Positions 1 through 20,866 are shown, counted from the stretch's first letter. The stretch: 22,064 nt of DNA from an uncultured archaeon (GCA_964577555.1 CAZNZM010000003.1:125015-147078); one strand, 5' to 3'. Translations and numbers: made by a program. The notes: generated by a model not told the origin, from the sequence alone.

Positions 1-63
1 GGCGTATTTTTCATTTTTTTGTTGTATTTCTGCTTTTTTGCAAGCCAATTTTTTTTCAGTCAT
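1..63 (-). CDS. Possible 5' end of a minus-strand gene running off the window (MTEKKLACKKAEIQQKNEKYA...)
   Basis: ATG at 63-61 (cat on + strand) is open for all 21 codons to the window edge. A TATA-like taatttaaaa lies at 91-100, about 32 nt upstream. The sequence becomes less homopolymeric toward the edge. The same start module recurs at 16629 and 16812. Confidence 0.3.
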   Translation of the reverse strand, partial: MTEKKLACKKAEIQQKNEKYA

Positions 64-297
64 TTTTTTTGATTTTTTTTATTTTGTTTTTAATTTAAAA
101 TTTTCAATTATTTTTTTGTCTTTTGTCAGGCGTGTTTTTTTTAATAAATTTATTTTTTTCCAATTCAATTTTATTTTTTTAGCGGTAAAGACTTTTTTTG
201 AATTATTTTTTTGTGAGCCAAATTTTTTTGTTTTTGTGAACTGTTTTTTGTTGTTTTTTTTGGCGAAACATTTTTTTTGTTATTTATTTTTTTTGAA
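1..297. repeat. T-rich (+ strand) low-complexity repeat array, locus A; truncated by the left window edge
   Basis: T7-T9 runs punctuated by gcaagccaa (40-48), gtgagccaaa (213-222) and ggcgaaaca (261-269). Positions 33-100 are near-identical to 16781-16846 apart from homopolymer-length changes. Confidence 0.85.
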
Positions 298-4497: not shown

Positions 4498-5310
4498 TTA
4501 TTCAGCAGATCTTGAAATCAAGGTTGATTGCTTGTTGCTTTCAATGACTTTTTGTGCTTCGCTTCTTCTCAATTCCAAGAGGACTTTTGAATAATTTCCG
4601 TTTAGATTGGCTAGTTGAATTGCTGCAATAACTGCGTTTTTGTAGTTGTTCAATCCTACGCAATATGATGATTGAAGAGTGTCAAAGAATTTGATTGCGT
4701 CTTTTTTTGAATTTTTTTTTGCAACTGGGCAAATAATTGTCGAGTTTTGCGTTGCAGTAGGCTTTTTTCCAAGTTTTACGAAATCAACGAAGATTTTTGA
4801 GTGTTCAAGTTTTTTTGTGTTGGGTGATTCGGAAAAAGGTATTTTATTTGTTTCCAGGAATTTTTTTGCTTTTTCGTAGTATTCTTTTTCAATGTTGGCG
4901 GTTTTTTTTACCAACGCAATTTCGGTAAATCCGTGTAAAAAATTTCCGCAAAGGCTTACCGCTTTTTCCACTTTTCCCACGCCAACTGCAATGACTGGGA
5001 CTCCGGGTGGCATTTGGGTGCAACTTAGAAAGGAATCAAGTCCGTTGAAGGCGCCTTCGCATGGAATTCCTATGACTGGCTTGATTTTTTTTGATGCTAT
5101 GACTCCTGGCAAAGCCGCAGCTAACCCTGCTCCTGCAATAAAAATTTCTGCAGCCGAGTCGTTTATTTCGAATTCAAGTTCTTTCGGGGTTTTGTGCGCG
5201 CTTAACACTCTGAAATCAAATGAAATGCCTGACCTTTTCAGCCTTGCGTTGAGGTCGTTATAAGTTTTTTCATCTGTTGAAGAGCCAAAAACAACCATTA
5301 CTTCTGCCAT
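4498..5310 (-). CDS. purE: PurE (AIR carboxylase / N5-CAIR mutase family) with a class II-like SAHK motif and an extra C-terminal partial repeat
   Basis: MAEVMVVFGSSTD, SAHKTP, AGAGLAAALPGVIA and VIGIPC...QMPPGVPVIAVGV. The start is moved to the ATG at 5310, preceded by GGTG at 5320-5317. The upstream extension to 5409 would cross the divergent purA promoter. Confidence 0.85.
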   Translation of the reverse strand: MAEVMVVFGSSTDEKTYNDLNARLKRSGISFDFRVLSAHKTPKELEFEINDSAAEIFIAGAGLAAALPGVIASKKIKPVIGIPCEGAFNGLDSFLSCTQMPPGVPVIAVGVGKVEKAVSLCGNFLHGFTEIALVKKTANIEKEYYEKAKKFLETNKIPFSESPNTKKLEHSKIFVDFVKLGKKPTATQNSTIICPVAKKNSKKDAIKFFDTLQSSYCVGLNNYKNAVIAAIQLANLNGNYSKVLLELRRSEAQKVIESNKQSTLISRSAE

Positions 5311-5335
5311 TTTAAACACCAAAAAAATCATGATT

Positions 5336-5358
5336 GGAAGATTTAATATTTTTAGTGG
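5336..5358 (-). promoter_or_regulatory. Putative TATA-like box for purE (minus strand aaaaatattaaatc)
   Basis: A/T box centred about 36 nt upstream of the purE ATG. The same spacing is seen for the other SD-led genes here. Confidence 0.4.
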
Positions 5359-5415
5359 TTCGGTTTCAAAATTTTGTTTTTTTGGTGTTTTGTTTGCTTG
5401 TTTTTTCAACGATTC

Positions 5416-6728: not shown

Positions 6729-6740
6729 AGCGCGTTTGAA

Positions 6741-6760
6741 TTATTTTTGTGTTTTTGTCT
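6741..6760 (+). terminator. Possible oligo-T terminator for purA
   Basis: T5 runs at 6744-6748 and 6752-6756 directly after the purA stop. Archaeal RNA polymerase terminates at oligo-T. This cannot be separated from the repeat array that starts here. Confidence 0.3.
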
Positions 6761-7032
6761 TTTGCAAGGCTTTTTTTTAGTTTTGGTTTTTTTTGTCTTT
6801 TTTTTGTTTGTTTTGTGAGCCAATTTTTTGTTTTTTTTTGGGGAGCCAAATTTTTTTGTCATTTTTTTGAATTTGTTTTTTTTTATTTAAATTGTTTTGT
6901 TTTTTTTGCTTGTTTTTTTAGATGTTTTTTTTGAATTGTTTTTTTTTGGTTTTGTTTTGGCAAGCCGTTTTATTTTTTTTGTTTTTTTTGTTTGAATTTT
7001 TGTTTTTTTTGCAAGCCGAATTTTTTTTGTTG

Positions 7033-7090
7033 TTTTTTTGATCTGTTCTTTTGTTTTTTTTGGTGAGCCAATTTTTTTTGTAATTTTTTT
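7033..7090. repeat. 58-bp perfect direct repeat, copy 1 (tttttttgatctgttcttttgttttttttggtgagccaattttttttgtaattttttt)
   Basis: Base-for-base identical to 7333-7390; offset exactly 300 bp. Confidence 0.95.
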
Positions 7091-7168
7091 GTGAATTTGT
7101 TTTTTTTTATTTAAATTGTTTTGTCTTTTTTTTGTCTTGTTTTTTTTGTTTGTTTTTGGCGAGCCGTT

Positions 7169-7471
7169 TTATTTTTTTATTTTTTTTGTTTGAAATTTTG
7201 TTTTTTTTCGGGCTATTTTTTTGTTGAGCCAATGTTGTTTTTTTGGTGTTTTTTTTATTTTTTTTAGTTTTGGTTTTTTTTTGAAGTTTTTTAGTTTATG
7301 TTTTTTTTGGCGAGCCGTTTTATTTTTTTTATTTTTTTTGATCTGTTCTTTTGTTTTTTTTGGTGAGCCAATTTTTTTTGTAATTTTTTTTGTCTTGTTG
7401 TTTTTTAGCCAAGGTCGTTTTTTGTTGTTTGTTTTTGCTAGCCTTTTTTTTTCAATTTTTAATTTTGTCAT
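7169..7471 (-). CDS. Questionable lysine-rich ORF inside repeat array B (100 codons, includes a GSPKK motif)
   Basis: ATGACA start at 7471 with an A/T-rich box (7485-7498) upstream. The composition is almost only K/N/Q/T/P, which any frame of an A/C-only strand would give. The conserved GAGCCAA cores are read in different frames in neighbouring ORFs. Confidence 0.2.
   Translation of the reverse strand: MTKLKIEKKRLAKTNNKKRPWLKNNKTKKITKKIGSPKKTKEQIKKNKKNKTARQKKHKLKNFKKKPKLKKIKKTPKKQHWLNKKIARKKTKFQTKKIKK
7333..7390. repeat. 58-bp perfect direct repeat, copy 2
   Basis: Base-for-base identical to 7033-7090. Confidence 0.95.
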
Positions 7472-7643
7472 TTTTTTGGTATTTTTATTTTAAAAATTAA
7501 AATTGTTTTGTTTTGGCGAACAGATTTTTTGTATTTTTTTGAATTTATTTTTTTTTAATTTTGTTTATTTTTTGTTTTTTTTGCAATCCTTTTTTTGTCG
7601 ATTTTTTGTTTTTTTAATATATTTTCGTGTTTTAATTTGTTGT

Positions 7644-8021
7644 TTAATTTGCTGTTGGTTTTTCAAGGTAAGAAAGAAGTTCGCGTTGCATTTTGTCAAA
7701 AGTATTTTGAAATTCGTTAATAAATTTTTTTGAGTTATTTCCGAAAAGCGGTTTGAGGATTTGAATGGCTTTGCCTTTGTTTTCGCCTGTAAAGAAGAGC
7801 AGGTTTATTGCGTCTTTTTGCTCTTTAAGTATTTCCAAAAACGCTTTTTTTTGTGTTGCCGAAACCCATTGTTTTGAAAGAACGTGTTGAAGCGCGTATC
7901 GCATGCTTTCATTGGTAATTTCTTTTATGGATTTTTCAATGTCCAGGTTTTCAACATTTGAAAATATTTTTGATTTTATTTCTTTTGCTTTTTTTTCAAA
8001 GTCTGTGTCTTTTTTTGCCAT
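7644..8021 (-). CDS. Hypothetical small protein, predicted helical, no recognisable family
   Basis: Normal (non-homopolymeric) codon composition. The likely start is the ATG at 8021 (MAKKDTDFEKK); the ORF-track start at 8057 is a TTG. Confidence 0.6.
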   Translation of the reverse strand: MAKKDTDFEKKAKEIKSKIFSNVENLDIEKSIKEITNESMRYALQHVLSKQWVSATQKKAFLEILKEQKDAINLLFFTGENKGKAIQILKPLFGNNSKKFINEFQNTFDKMQRELLSYLEKPTAN

Positions 8022-12520: not shown

Positions 12521-12540
12521 AAATAATTTTTTTGGAATTT
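12521..12540 (+). terminator. Possible oligo-T terminator for the glyA-folD-purN-purH unit
   Basis: T7 run at 12527-12533 immediately after the purH stop. It merges into repeat array C. Confidence 0.3.
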
Positions 12541-12860
12541 TAATGGCTGAACTTGTTTTTTTTGTCAATTTTTTTAACCATTTTTTTGTATTAGCTTTTT
12601 TTAGGGTTGTTTTTTTGCCAGATGTTTTTTTTGTTTTTTATTATTTTTTTAATTTTCTAAATCAATTTTTGTATCTAATCAGTTTTTTAGCCAATTTATT
12701 TTTTTAAATTCTTTTTTTTGTCAAGTTTTTTGCAAGCATTTTTTTGAATTTTGATTTTTTTTTCAATTTAGTTTTTTTTGGTGAGCCATTTTTTCATGAA
12801 ATTATTTTTTTATTTGTTTTTTGCCTGTTTTTTTGAACATTTTTTAACCAAAAACCCTAT
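12521..12860. repeat. T-rich (+ strand) low-complexity repeat array, locus C
   Basis: Same style as the other arrays: ggtgagcca (12780-12788) followed by ttttttcat, ttagccaattt (about 12688) and tgcaagcattttttt (about 12731), with T6-T9 runs throughout. Confidence 0.8.
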
Positions 12861-12868
12861 CAAAAAAC

Positions 12869-12880
12869 TTTATTAATATA
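12869..12880 (+). promoter_or_regulatory. Putative TATA box for the ABC transporter operon (tttattaatata)
   Basis: Centred about 26-27 nt upstream of the ATG at 12901 with no SD, consistent with a leaderless archaeal mRNA. Confidence 0.45.
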
Positions 12881-12900
12881 GATTAATTAATTTTACTTAA

Positions 12901-16387: not shown

Positions 16388-16469
16388 TTTAACACTAATG
16401 AAATCTACAAAGTCCGAGAATTTAAACTTTTCTGAAAATTCGCAAGACTGTGCTGTGTTGTCATAGCGC

Positions 16470-17124
16470 CAATGTTTTTTATTGTTTTGTTTTTTGCGGG
16501 CCTTTTTTTTGAAATTATTTTTTATTTAAAATAAATTTTTTTGTCATTGGCTTGGTTTTTTTTGAATTGTTTTTCTGATTTTTGTTTTTTGTTGATTTTT
16601 TTTACAAGCCAAATTTTTTTTTCAGTCATTTTTTTGTGAATTTGTTTTTATTTCGTTTTAAATTATTTTTTTGTTTTTTTAGTTTATTTTATTTTTTTTG
16701 TCTTTGTTGGCTTGATTTTTTTTGTTTGAAATTTGTTTTTTTTGAATCAATTTTTTGGCGTATTGTTTTTGTTTTTTGTTTATTTTTGCAAGCCAATTTT
16801 TTTTTCAGTCATTTTTTTGATTTTTTTTGTTTTGTTTTAATTATTTTTTTTGTCTTTGTTGGCTTGGTTTTTTTGGGTTTTGTTTTTTTTGTTTTTGTGA
16901 GCCAATTTTTTGCAACCCATTTTTTACCACTTTTATTTTTTTTAAAGTAAAATTTTGTTTTTGGTCTTTAGTTTGTTTTTTTCCGAGCCGTTCTTTTGAC
17001 AATTTTTATTTTTTTTAGTTTTATTTTTTGTGTTGTCTTTTTGCTGTTTGTTTTTTTTGAGACGTGTTTTTTATTTGAATTATTTTTTTGAATTCGCTTG
17101 TTTCTTTTCTTTTCCGTATGAATT
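16470..17124. repeat. T-rich (+ strand) low-complexity repeat array, locus D, with tandem units of about 150-185 bp
   Basis: caagccaa(a)-T9-cagtcat at 16605-16629 and 16789-16812. gtgagccaa at 16897-16905. gtc(a/ttt)(t)tggcttg at 16543-16554, 16701-16714 and 16853-16866. The gtttgaaatttgtttttttt module is shared with locus B. Confidence 0.88.
16522..16629 (-). CDS. Questionable lysine-rich mini-ORF in array D (35 codons: MTEKKIWLVKKINKKQKSEKQFKKNQANDKKIYFK)
   Basis: ATGACTG start with a TATA-like ttttaaatta (16656-16665) about 31 nt upstream. The sister copy starting at 16812 stops after only 10 codons, so there is no protein-level conservation. Confidence 0.15.
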   Translation of the reverse strand: MTEKKIWLVKKINKKQKSEKQFKKNQANDKKIYFK

Positions 17125-17866: not shown

Positions 17867-20242
17867 TTACCACCATAAAGTTTTTTTCCATGCTTTTTTA
17901 AGTTCTGCAAGGCTTTCTTCAATCAATTTTTTTTCTTTGAAATTTATTATTAATTTTTTTTGTTTTGTCACTTCTCCTATTTTTGAAAACTCTGCACCTT
18001 CCAAGGCTTTTTCAAATTCTTTTTCTTTTCCTTTCGCGACTTCAACAAGCATTCTTGAATTTGATTCGGAGAAAAGCAAAATGTCTGGTCTTTCTATTTT
18101 TTCTCCTGTAATTATTTTTTCACATTTTATTTTAGCTCCAAATCCTGAACCAAAAGACATTTCAGACAAGGCAACTGCAATCCCGCCTTCAGAACAATCG
18201 TGGCAGGCAGTTATGATTTTTTCATTTGTGTCTTGGCTTGCAATTAATTTACTTAATATTGAATATGTTTTTTTTGCTGACTTGAATCTTACTTTAGGCA
18301 CTTTGCCGGACTTTGTTTTTGTTAGTTTGTAATAATGGCTTCCTCCAAGTTCATCATATGTTTGCCCTAAAATATAAATGCTGTTTCCTTCCCTTTTAAA
18401 TGGCATTGAAATTTTTTTTCTTGAGTCTTCAATTATTCCTATTGCAGAAATTAAGAGTGTGCCTGGTATTGAAATGTTTTTGTCGTTTGCTTTGTATTCA
18501 TTGTATAAGCTGTCTTTTCCTGAAATGAATGGCGTGTTGAATTCGATTGATGCGTCGTGGCATCCTTTGCAAGCTCTTACAAGTTCTCCTAATGTTTCTT
18601 TTTTTTCAGGGTTGCCCCATGAAAAGTTGTCTAGCAATGCGATTTTTTCAAAATCCGCTCCAACGCATATAGCGTTTCTTATTGCTTCATCTATTGTGGA
18701 GCAAGCCATCCAATAAGGATCTATGTCGGTGTAGAAGGGATTTATTCCGTTGGCAATGACAACTCCTTTCCAGCAATCAAGTAATGGTCTGACTATTGCA
18801 GCGTCGCTTGGTGCATCAGATTCTGGCCCAACAAATGGTTTTAGGACTGTTCCGCCTCTGACTTCATGATCATACTTTCTTACTGTTTTTTCTTTGCTGC
18901 AAATGTTTGGCATTGATAAAATGCTTTTTAGAATTTTGCCATAATCTTCTGGTTCTTTTGGTTTTGCTGTTTTTTCTTTTTTTTCAATCCATTCAGCTTC
19001 AAGTTCTTTTTTTGGGTTTCCGTTGTGCAGGAAATCCATGTCCAGTTCTCCTACAAGTTCTTGTTTGTAATAAAGCTCCAATTTTTTTGTGTCTGTAAAT
19101 TCGCCTATGATAGTGGCCTCTGTTCCTTCTATTTCGCATATTTCCTTGATTTTTTGGAAATTATTTTTTGGCACTGCAAGTATCATTCTTTCTTGTGCTT
19201 CTGACAACCATATTTCCCATGGTTGTAGGCCTTCGTATTTTAAAGGCGCTTTTTCTAAATATACTTTTGCACCTGTTTTTGAACCCATTTCGCCAATTGC
19301 TGATGAAAAGCCTCCTGCACCGCAATCGGTTATTGCGGTGTAAAGCTTTAAATCCCTGGCTTTTAGTATTGCTTCAATCATTTTTTTTTCTTCAATAGGA
19401 TTGCCTATTTGGACTACGCTTGAAGAAATTTCTGAAGTGAGTTCGGTTGATGAAAATGTTGCTCCATGAAGCCCGTCTCTTCCTGTCCTTCCGCCTATAA
19501 CAACTATTAGTTCTCCTGGGGATGCTTTTTTTTGTGTCATTTCTTTTGGTATTATGCCAATTGTTCCACAATAAACAAGCGGGTTTCCAAGGTAGCGTGG
19601 CTCGAAAAGTATTGCTCCATTGACTGTGGGTATTCCGAGTTTGTTGCCGTAATCCATTATTCCTGCTCTTACTCCTTTGAATATTCTTTTAGGATGCAAT
19701 ACTCCTTTAGGGATTTTTTGCAATTCAGTGTCGTGGTTGCCAAAACATAGTACATCCGTGCAGGCAAAAGGCCTTGCTCCAAGCCCTGCTCCAAGAACGT
19801 CTCTTATTACTCCTCCAACTCCGGTGTTTGCTCCGCCGAATGGGTCTAATGCGCTTGGATGGTTGTGGGTTTCCACTTTTATAGCAATGTCATAATTTTC
19901 GTTGAATTGTATTATGCCAGCATTGTCTGAAAATACTGATGCTAACCATTTTTTTTCGGATTTGTATGTTGGTTCGCGAATGTATGTTTTGAATAGGCTG
20001 TCTATTTTTTCTTGCTTCCCGTTTTCTTTGTAATTTATCAATGCGTTGAATGTTTTGTGTTTGCAGTGTTCGCTCCAGGTTTGCGCAATTGTTTCAAGTT
20101 CTATGTGGGTTGGTTCGCGCCCTATTTTTTTGTAATATTTTTGTATTTGAAGCATTTCAGTTTGGTTAAGGGATAATAGCATTTTTTTGCTTAATTCTAT
20201 CAATTCTTTTTCATTCATTTTTGAAATCTTGATTTCACTCAT
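17867..20242 (-). CDS. purL: FGAM synthase subunit II (small-type PurL)
   Basis: WSEHCKHKTF and ETHNHPSALDPFGGANTGVGG, with duplicated PurM-like domains. ATG verified at 20242. Confidence 0.96.
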   Translation of the reverse strand: MSEIKISKMNEKELIELSKKMLLSLNQTEMLQIQKYYKKIGREPTHIELETIAQTWSEHCKHKTFNALINYKENGKQEKIDSLFKTYIREPTYKSEKKWLASVFSDNAGIIQFNENYDIAIKVETHNHPSALDPFGGANTGVGGVIRDVLGAGLGARPFACTDVLCFGNHDTELQKIPKGVLHPKRIFKGVRAGIMDYGNKLGIPTVNGAILFEPRYLGNPLVYCGTIGIIPKEMTQKKASPGELIVVIGGRTGRDGLHGATFSSTELTSEISSSVVQIGNPIEEKKMIEAILKARDLKLYTAITDCGAGGFSSAIGEMGSKTGAKVYLEKAPLKYEGLQPWEIWLSEAQERMILAVPKNNFQKIKEICEIEGTEATIIGEFTDTKKLELYYKQELVGELDMDFLHNGNPKKELEAEWIEKKEKTAKPKEPEDYGKILKSILSMPNICSKEKTVRKYDHEVRGGTVLKPFVGPESDAPSDAAIVRPLLDCWKGVVIANGINPFYTDIDPYWMACSTIDEAIRNAICVGADFEKIALLDNFSWGNPEKKETLGELVRACKGCHDASIEFNTPFISGKDSLYNEYKANDKNISIPGTLLISAIGIIEDSRKKISMPFKREGNSIYILGQTYDELGGSHYYKLTKTKSGKVPKVRFKSAKKTYSILSKLIASQDTNEKIITACHDCSEGGIAVALSEMSFGSGFGAKIKCEKIITGEKIERPDILLFSESNSRMLVEVAKGKEKEFEKALEGAEFSKIGEVTKQKKLIINFKEKKLIEESLAELKKAWKKTLWW

Positions 20243-20717
20243 TTTTTTCGCCTATTTCATAGGTTTCAATTACTGAATTTGCAAGCAATTCTTTGGTTAT
20301 GCGTTTTATGTCATTTTTTGTTATTTTTCCATAAAAATAGTATTTTTTTCCTGTTCTTATTTTTGCTTCTAATTTTTTTCCCGTAAAATCCTCTATTGCT
20401 TCTGCCATGACTATGCCTAAGTTGTCTGTAACTCCTTCGTGCAGTTTTACTTCCACCCAATAGTTGCTGTCTTTGTAAAAATTTTCGTCTATTGAAAATT
20501 TTTGAATTAAAGGATCAATAATGGCTTTTTCGCAAATTATAGAGAGTGTTTCTTTTTCCAAGTTTGATTCTATGTGGTATGTTTCGCAGAATCTTATTGA
20601 TTCAATTCCTTTTATTAGCAAATCTTCTTCTATGTCGTTTTTTGTTGAAATTCCTACTGCATCAAGCCTTTTTTCGGTAATCGCTGTTTCGATTCTGTGT
20701 TTTTGTTTCACAATCAA
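20235..20717 (-). CDS. purS: PurS-like FGAM synthase subunit, tandem double-PurS fusion (about 160 aa)
   Basis: Two consecutive PurS-like halves, each ending in a PurS-type C-terminus. Half 1 is about residues 8-75 (DAVGISTKNDIEEDLLIKGIESIR...EKAIIDPLIQKFSI). Half 2 is about residues 85-155 (WVEVKLHEGVTDNLG...KELLANSVIETYEI). Overlaps the purL start by 8 nt. The start is uncertain: TTG at 20717 or GTG at 20711. Confidence 0.8.
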   Translation of the reverse strand: MIVKQKHRIETAITEKRLDAVGISTKNDIEEDLLIKGIESIRFCETYHIESNLEKETLSIICEKAIIDPLIQKFSIDENFYKDSNYWVEVKLHEGVTDNLGIVMAEAIEDFTGKKLEAKIRTGKKYYFYGKITKNDIKRITKELLANSVIETYEIGEKNE

Positions 20718-20742: not shown

Positions 20743-20866
20743 CAATTGATGTCATTGGCTACGTTGTTTTATTGTAACTTTGCAAGACTTTTTGGCATAT
20801 TATACTTATTGTTTTTTATTGATTTTTTTTGCAATCGTGCTATTTTTTTGTGAGAGTTGTTGCGGT

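Follow-up and report, generated by a model that had tools for sequence, protein, structure and literature searches.

We analysed a stretch of 22,064 nucleotides from an uncultured archaeon (GCA_964577555.1 CAZNZM010000003.1:125015-147078), hereafter called the window. It is part of the Joint Genome Institute (JGI) metagenome contig Ga0394875_0003638, and window base 1 corresponds to contig base 346. The contig carries a purine and one-carbon cluster that comprises purM, purB, a methyltransferase gene, purC, purE, purA, a 125-aa open reading frame (ORF) called hyp125, glyA, folD, purN and purH, and that continues with an ATP-binding cassette (ABC) transporter, a Yip1-like membrane protein, purQ, purL, purS and purF. 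These genes had been correctly assigned in a preliminary description of the same DNA. Between them lie four large T-rich repeat arrays (A to D), which are the subject of this study. Array DNA makes up about 11.5% of the contig.

The host is probably a DPANN-type archaeon. At about 63% identity, the nearest PurH clusters carry the names 'Candidatus Diapherotrites archaeon' and 'uncultured archaeon', and the first gene of each transcription unit is preceded by a TATA-like box, 27-45 nt before its start codon. No Shine-Dalgarno-like motif was seen by eye upstream of the first genes of the units. An archaeal host is relevant here, since the RNA polymerase of archaea needs only bare oligo-T to terminate: T5-6 on the non-template strand is sufficient and a hairpin is not needed, and natural archaeal genes can carry several consecutive oligo-T signals (PMC2253867).

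The arrays have a common grammar, in which oligo-dT tracts of 7-9 on one strand are separated by short variable words with a recurrent AGCC(A/G) core. On the + strand, T accounts for 62% of the gap at 1-297, 67% of that at 6729-7643 (A 12%), 58% at 12521-12900 and 61% at 16388-17124, and the four gaps together contain 119 runs of at least six T versus a single run of at least six A. The distribution of T-run length is not geometric: there are 46 runs of 7 and 49 of 8 (18 and 14 expected), and none of 10 or more (33 expected). The AGCC[AG] core is present in 22 copies (1.1 expected) and in the reverse orientation in 5 (1.6 expected), while RAGCCRWTTTTT has seven matches (0.4 expected), all on the + strand. 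These counts, together with the shared modules described below, bear out the earlier view that a single strand-locked family with AGCC cores fills the gaps. The statement that the T-runs are separated mostly by single G residues was incorrect. G directly follows 66% of the runs of at least six T, but a lone G makes up only 25 of the 208 inter-run words, which are 1-13 nt long and of which 134 are distinct. We also considered the alternative that all spacers are alike and share no modules, so that the arrays would be background composition. T is about equal to A in the remaining spacers of the window, except for a small T-rich insertion in the purS/purF spacer, and the modules exceed those of shuffled arrays. 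These results confirm the observation and set the arrays apart from background composition.

The positions of the arrays and of related features are listed in Table 1. Three details of the preliminary description had to be revised. Array A reaches the contig start, 345 bp past the window, and is therefore at least 642 bp long; array D starts near 16446; and the small insertion, a fifth site, had been missed.

Table 1. Arrays and other features of the window, with the length of the corresponding spacer in a sister species where it was compared
Feature	Position	Strand	Location and remarks	Spacer, sister species vs window
Array A	1..297	+	Downstream of purM (minus strand); 102-bp exact direct duplication, 298-bp spacing	
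Array B	6729..7643	+	Between the converging stop codons of purA (+) and hyp125 (-)	purA/hyp125: 14 bp (ATTTTTGTGCCAAC) vs 915 bp
58-bp segment of array B	7033..7090	+	Exact second copy at 7333..7390 (300-bp spacing); bears a T8-GGTGAGCCAA-T8 core	
Array C	12521..12860	+	Between the purH stop codon and the ABC-transporter operon promoter; GTTTTTTTTGGTGAGCCA common to array B	purH to ABC transporter: 73 bp vs 380 bp
TATA-like box of ABC operon	12869..12880	+	TTTATTAATATA; conserved in sister species, spared by array C	
Array D	16446..17124	+	Between the promoter of the Yip1-like gene (minus) and the purQ stop codon (minus)	Yip1-like gene/purQ: 78 bp vs 737 bp
TATA-like box of Yip1-like gene	16420..16428	-	Conserved in sister species, spared by array D	
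Small T-rich insertion	about 20750-20860	+	Same polarity; in the divergent purS/purF promoter spacer; family words TGTCATTGGCT, TTTTTTTGTGAG	purS/purF: 123 bp vs 190 bp
JGI-called 'hypothetical protein'	contig bases 58-408	-	Lysine-rich, 116 aa; inside an array	
JGI-called 'hypothetical protein'	7169-7471	-	Lysine-rich, 100 aa; inside an array	
JGI-called 'hypothetical protein'	16522-16629	-	Lysine-rich, 35 aa; inside an array	
JGI-called 'hypothetical protein'	16841-17002	-	Lysine-rich, 53 aa; inside an array	
hyp125	7644-8021	-	125-aa ORF	
purE	4498-5409	-	303 aa to the first TTG	
purS	20235-20717	-	About 158 aa	

Modules are shared between loci, as had been claimed. Markov nulls for shared k-mers were uninformative unless the k-mers were required to contain non-T letters or the T-runs were collapsed. 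When each T-run was collapsed to one token, 70 segments of at least nine tokens were common to arrays A, B and D, compared with 22-32 in shuffles (maximum 52). The longest of them, T-GCAAGCCAA-T-CAGTCA-T-GA-T, spans four T-runs and occurs in arrays A and D. Exact matches between arrays reach 22 bp at most, and array C is the most divergent member of the family. Within arrays, the long exact duplications of arrays A and B (Table 1) are accompanied by shorter ones of 33 bp and 26 bp in arrays B and D, at lags of 151 and 152, and a further exact-duplication lag is 224. Array B contains 50 runs of at least six T, no run of at least six A and 11 GCC cores, and Tandem Repeats Finder detected degenerate periods of 51 and 99 bp with a 63-67% match. 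In arrays A, B and D self-similarity is highest at a lag of 298-308 bp; despite this, the putative 300-bp units did not align as one element in a multiple alignment, and the idea of a common 300-bp unit was dropped. Slippage-generated satellite DNA had been proposed as one origin of the arrays. The exact internal duplications of 26-102 bp and the degenerate 51/99-bp periods agree with this proposal, but slippage in place cannot by itself explain why different loci share modules, or why new arrays stand where a sister species has only 14-78 bp.

It was necessary to consider whether homopolymer-rich sequence of this kind could be an assembly or sequencing artefact. Every assembly ends inside an array (window position 1, the end of L002 at 16565, the ends of L087 and L088 at 7361 and 7162, and the start of L089 at 16848), and the 58-bp and 102-bp exact repeats within arrays have the size of k-mers. 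However, four Logan contigs from one assembly (SRR12686701) and a contig of a second JGI metagenome (3300043267) are base-identical to the window across arrays B, C and D and across both junctions of array C with its neighbouring genes, and an array of like grammar was assembled in another species from another sample. The source samples are JGI 3300037501 and 3300043267 and SRR12686701. An artefact is therefore highly improbable. We regard the arrays as real, although their exact lengths are less certain than their existence. Breaks within the arrays are expected because the arrays are repeats. It follows that they fragment assemblies and may be under-represented in binned genomes.

Comparison with a sister species showed how the arrays relate to the genes around them. 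Gene order is identical in the two species, PurH is 92% identical at the amino acid level and 87% at the nucleotide level, and hyp125 is 88% identical. The spacers of three large arrays and of the small insertion are much shorter in the sister species (Table 1). The stop codons and TATA boxes on either side are conserved there, and the arrays occupy only the unconserved middle. In the sister species a short T-run is already present on the + strand of each colonised spacer, and TTTTTGTnAGCCAA-like words occur in two of these spacers. No arrays were found in four further, more distant relatives. These comparisons show that the species of the window has recently gained three large arrays and one small one, in spacers that are 14-123 bp long in the sister species. 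All four large arrays sit just past a stop codon, and every array, including the small one in the promoter spacer, leaves stop codons and TATA boxes untouched. The arrays colonise spacers at the 3' ends of transcription units and leave promoters intact, and we infer that they are dispensable for the expression of neighbouring genes.

The purM site is different. The sister species has a 628-bp array directly downstream of purM (L196 9543-10170), in the position of array A. This array has the same polarity, consists of 63% T and contains no run of six or more A, and its T-runs, 9 at the longest, are most often 7-8 in length. Its AGCC cores number 5 in each orientation, unlike the 22 and 5 of the window. 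It shares modules with arrays B and D, and the modules common to it and to arrays A, B and D exceed those of every shuffle. The presence of an array at the purM site in both species suggests that the family predates their split. The positionally equivalent arrays align no better with each other than the sister array does with arrays B or D: the alignment scores are 327 to array A, 328 to B and 340 to D, barely above a unit-shuffled control (282 +/- 18, maximum 326). The purM gene beside these arrays is 86% identical between the two species. The sequence of the arrays changes far more quickly than the genes beside them, and both grammar and polarity are retained.

Two further features were observed in the spacers of the sister species. 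Two forward-oriented intergenic TTTTGT(n)(AG)CCAA-like words (L084 4274-4287 and L083 11010-11030) occupy the positions of array B and of the small purS/purF insertion in the window, and may represent seeds of arrays or an ancestral spacer motif. The purS/purF spacer also contains a palindrome-like AGCCAAG-N11-CTTGGTT between both TATA boxes, which could be an operator.

We tentatively favour the explanation that the arrays are a lineage-restricted, fast-turnover, non-coding family of degenerate repeats that spread by duplication and template switching at T-tracts, although we stop short of calling it probable. According to this explanation, arrays would grow by local duplication and slippage, and a new site would be seeded when a nascent strand with an A/T run at its end left its template and resumed on a different T-run of the same strand. 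Template switching of this kind would keep polarity, shuffle the words and favour spacers that already hold a short T-run; copies would keep their polarity because donor arrays have long T-runs on one strand only. Homology breakpoints lie inside T-runs in seven cases, compared with 2.6 +/- 1.5 expected and a shuffle maximum of 8.

The appearance of new arrays at formerly compact sites, within the divergence of two congeneric species, could also be the work of one or more small non-autonomous mobile elements that target T-runs and nest within themselves to build arrays. The multi-word modules common to several loci and the recurrence of duplications in arrays A, B and D, about 150 and 300 bp apart, agree with such elements. 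Nevertheless, the arrays lack terminal inverted repeats, hairpins and defined unit ends, the putative 300-bp units align to no common element, and the window contains no transposase or integrase gene. The phage and plasmid collections gave no match to array B in a BLAST search, which was weak as a low-complexity filter was applied. We consider a mobile element decidedly unlikely.

The polarity of the arrays, within this one contig, is independent of the orientation of flanking genes, as had been noted previously. It suits termination of purA and purH but is wrong for purM, purQ and hyp125, and the array at the purM site is antisense to both flanking genes in both species. In the purE spacer, by comparison, a T7 lies on the minus strand, as a real terminator should. 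Ordinary terminators of the neighbouring genes were therefore rejected as an explanation, in agreement with the preliminary description, which had held simple oligo-T termination to be insufficient. The arrays resemble archaeal oligo-dT terminators in having bare tracts of at least five T on the non-template strand, without a hairpin, just after stop codons (PMC2253867), and arrays B and C open with T-tracts right after purA and purH. They differ in that tens of tracts extend over 0.3-0.9 kb rather than one to four, in that three of the five genes ending at an array meet it in the wrong polarity, and in their AGCC core, their modules shared between loci and their absence from the sister species. 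No hairpin terminators were found.

Each array would act as a stack of intrinsic oligo-T terminators on rightward transcription only, and a near-absolute block is predicted. It is conceivable that the arrays are selected as one-way insulators that halt rightward read-through or antisense transcription at the ends of units. The position of all four large arrays at 3' ends with promoters spared, the suitable polarity of arrays B and C, the sufficiency of T5-6 in archaea and the natural occurrence of consecutive signals (PMC2253867), and the persistence of the grammar and of the purM-site array in two species are all consistent with insulation. However, polarity is wrong at purM, purQ and hyp125, whereas the T7 of the purE spacer is on the minus strand; the 20 to 50 T-tracts per array far exceed the needs of termination; and the sister species copes with 14-78 bp at three of the sites. 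Selected insulators are, in our judgement, unlikely.

The same polarity could instead reflect a process on the scale of the chromosome, for example lagging-strand priming zones or orientation signals whose T-rich strand is fixed to the direction of the replication fork. All arrays, including the purM-site array of both species, have one polarity whatever the direction of the genes. The arrays are richer in G than in C on the T-rich strand, and the cumulative GC skew rises over most of the window, although this skew largely tracks gene strand. Against such a chromosome-polar element, the arrays of the window lie on a single contig with one presumed fork direction, and if orientation were random the four later arrays would match array A with a probability of about 0.06. 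The window holds no origin-recognition-box-like motif beyond chance: a mini-ORB-like pattern had 17 matches versus 17 expected, none of them in the arrays. The window also contains no orc1/cdc6 gene, and a replication origin was rejected. An element tied to replication or a similar process is improbable.

The physical properties of the T-tracts were also considered. Phased, bent T-tract DNA, another of the earlier suggestions, was rejected: T-runs are most often spaced 13-15 bp apart, and Fourier analysis gives its strongest periods at 14.5-25, with no signal at 10-11 bp. The arrays would be expected to form stiff, probably histone-poor poly(dA:dT) DNA. A-tracts disfavour histone wrapping, and the arrays might therefore serve as histone-free spacers or chromatin boundaries that keep gene ends open. 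The T7-9 tracts are indeed dense and unphased, and resistance to wrapping would be independent of gene direction. Such a role explains neither the strand-locking nor the AGCC core, and the sister species lacks arrays at three of the sites. Chromatin spacers are quite improbable as the explanation of the arrays.

Several observations weigh against the favoured explanation of self-spreading repeats. The uniform polarity across loci is weak statistically, being drawn from 4-5 arrays in a single 22-kb contig. The excess of breakpoints in T-runs is only modest, and support for template switching is circumstantial. Instead of being inherited, the arrays at the purM site could have arisen by independent insertion at a hotspot. 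The archaeal assignment rests on homologues of about 63% identity and on promoter architecture. In addition, the persistence of about 600 bp at the purM site in both species, the sharp bounding of T-run lengths at 7-9, and the fact that a streamlined, deletion-biased genome would not be expected to keep such DNA passively all hint at constraint or a dedicated process. Owing to the persistence at the purM site, the bounded tracts and a grammar that survives sequence turnover, the insulator, replication-linked, mobile-element and chromatin-free-spacer explanations stay alive.

These features also fit a broader possibility, namely that the arrays are an undescribed class of archaeal element that is defined by its grammar, is spread by a dedicated process and has a chromosome-polar role. 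The persistence of grammar and polarity at the purM site despite complete sequence turnover, the bounded tract length and the recent spread are all compatible with it. The dedicated process might be a T-tract-specific copying or priming activity, or a binding protein, and the role might be that of one-way transcription barriers or replication-linked signals. Taken jointly, these proposals are rather unlikely.

Other readings of the arrays were rejected on more direct grounds. The A-rich minus strand has ORFs of up to 100-116 codons that the JGI annotation calls as genes, and lysine-rich mini-genes had also been among the roles suggested before. However, period-3 power in the arrays is at background (0.5-1.4, compared with 7-18 in the pur and glyA genes and 2.0 in the short, unannotated hyp125), Pfam gave no match, no homologue was found at E<=1, and the sister species does not have the arrays. 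Because the composition of an A/C-rich strand makes stop codons rare, long open frames should arise there by chance. Small lysine-rich protein genes have a negligible probability. The four JGI-called lysine-rich 'hypothetical proteins' inside the arrays (Table 1) appear to be spurious calls on the A-rich strand.

The earlier exclusion of known repeat classes was upheld. The arrays are not clustered regularly interspaced short palindromic repeats (CRISPR), since the T7-9 run is the sole constant element and repeat finders show no repeat/spacer unit of 24-48 bp. Nor are they repetitive extragenic palindromes (REP), bacterial interspersed mosaic elements (BIME) or miniature inverted-repeat transposable elements (MITE), as they have no palindromic units, terminal inverted repeats or hairpins; reverse-complement matches of at least 12 nt between or within arrays are absent except for one AT-only 12-mer. 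A structured or known RNA was rejected on the basis of fold z-scores of -0.15 and -0.6 and the lack of an Rfam match at E<=1. Relics of tRNA 3' ends (CCA followed by a T-run) were rejected because no tRNA-like sequence was present, and no tRNA or transfer-messenger RNA was found. cDNA copies of A/G-rich exosome tails were dropped because the complement of the arrays is A/C-rich, which is the wrong composition.

We classify the arrays as intergenic repeat or satellite DNA built from archaeal terminator-like T-tracts. They resemble bacterial intergenic minisatellites, such as tandem repeats of the mycobacterial interspersed repetitive unit (MIRU) and variable-number tandem repeat (VNTR) type, and dispersed repeat clusters such as REP/BIME, in being dispersed, non-coding families that lie between genes of operon-rich regions and vary between close relatives. 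They differ in having no fixed unit (51/99-bp periods with a 63-67% match) and no palindromes, in the extreme composition of one strand and in their archaeal host. AT-rich eukaryotes such as Plasmodium and Dictyostelium have low-complexity DNA rich in poly(dA:dT) tracts, in which dense homopolymer tracts are confined to intergenic DNA. The arrays are likewise dense in homopolymer tracts and only intergenic, but they occur in a compact genome of about 35-40% G+C, with tracts bounded at 7-9, a single polarity and a recurring core word.

Streamlining is considered typical of DPANN-type archaea. Low-complexity array DNA at the level found here is unexpected in such an archaeon, and its origin or spread falls within the time over which two congeneric species diverged. 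If they propagate themselves, the arrays would be a clear case from nature of satellite birth driven by microhomology in a prokaryote and, in practice, a reason why assemblies of such genomes break. If selection maintains them, archaea would gain a first described example of a polar, grammar-defined insulator or orientation element. For annotation, the 'genes' called within arrays are spurious either way.

Searches for further members of the family were made in several collections. Scanning genome contigs with TTTTTTGN{2,3}AGCCAATTTTTTT gave 77 single matches in unrelated taxa, and among the matches listed the loci inspected were not array-like; a scan of T/A-run density in all fetched loci made no genome-contig match stand out. 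Scanning metagenome contigs with TTTTTTTTGTTTGAAATTN{1,3}TTTTTT gave 83 single matches in a collection that evidently lacks the source metagenome, and those that were array-like carry eukaryote-like, intron-split genes. Four pattern scans of viral contigs yielded chance matches only, and a lysine-rich array ORF used as a protein query for further arrays returned nothing at E<=1. Exact matches to purM and purQ were confined to this contig and shorter Logan contigs. An NCBI contig of 147,078 bp encodes PurH and hyp125 identical to those of the window, and it was not among the matches of the genome-contig scan. The unrelated look-alikes met by chance in the metagenome scan (L091, L136 and L117 of Ga0208946; L131 and L163) form two groups, namely eukaryote-like contigs with T-tract/GAAAWT tandem arrays beside intron-split genes, and a TTTGAAATTYTATTTTTTTT repeat of 21-bp period.

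A few minor observations concern the genes of the cluster. The hyp125 ORF has no Pfam match, is unannotated and belongs to only four clusters in the protein database, and it is kept between purA and glyA in all relatives examined (L084, L176, L179 and L199). The purE gene, read to the first TTG, is longer than the 270 aa found in relatives, and purS also exceeds the usual length, with the PurS domain confined to the C-terminal half (Table 1). The lengths of purE and purS reflect either uncertain start codons or N-terminal extensions.

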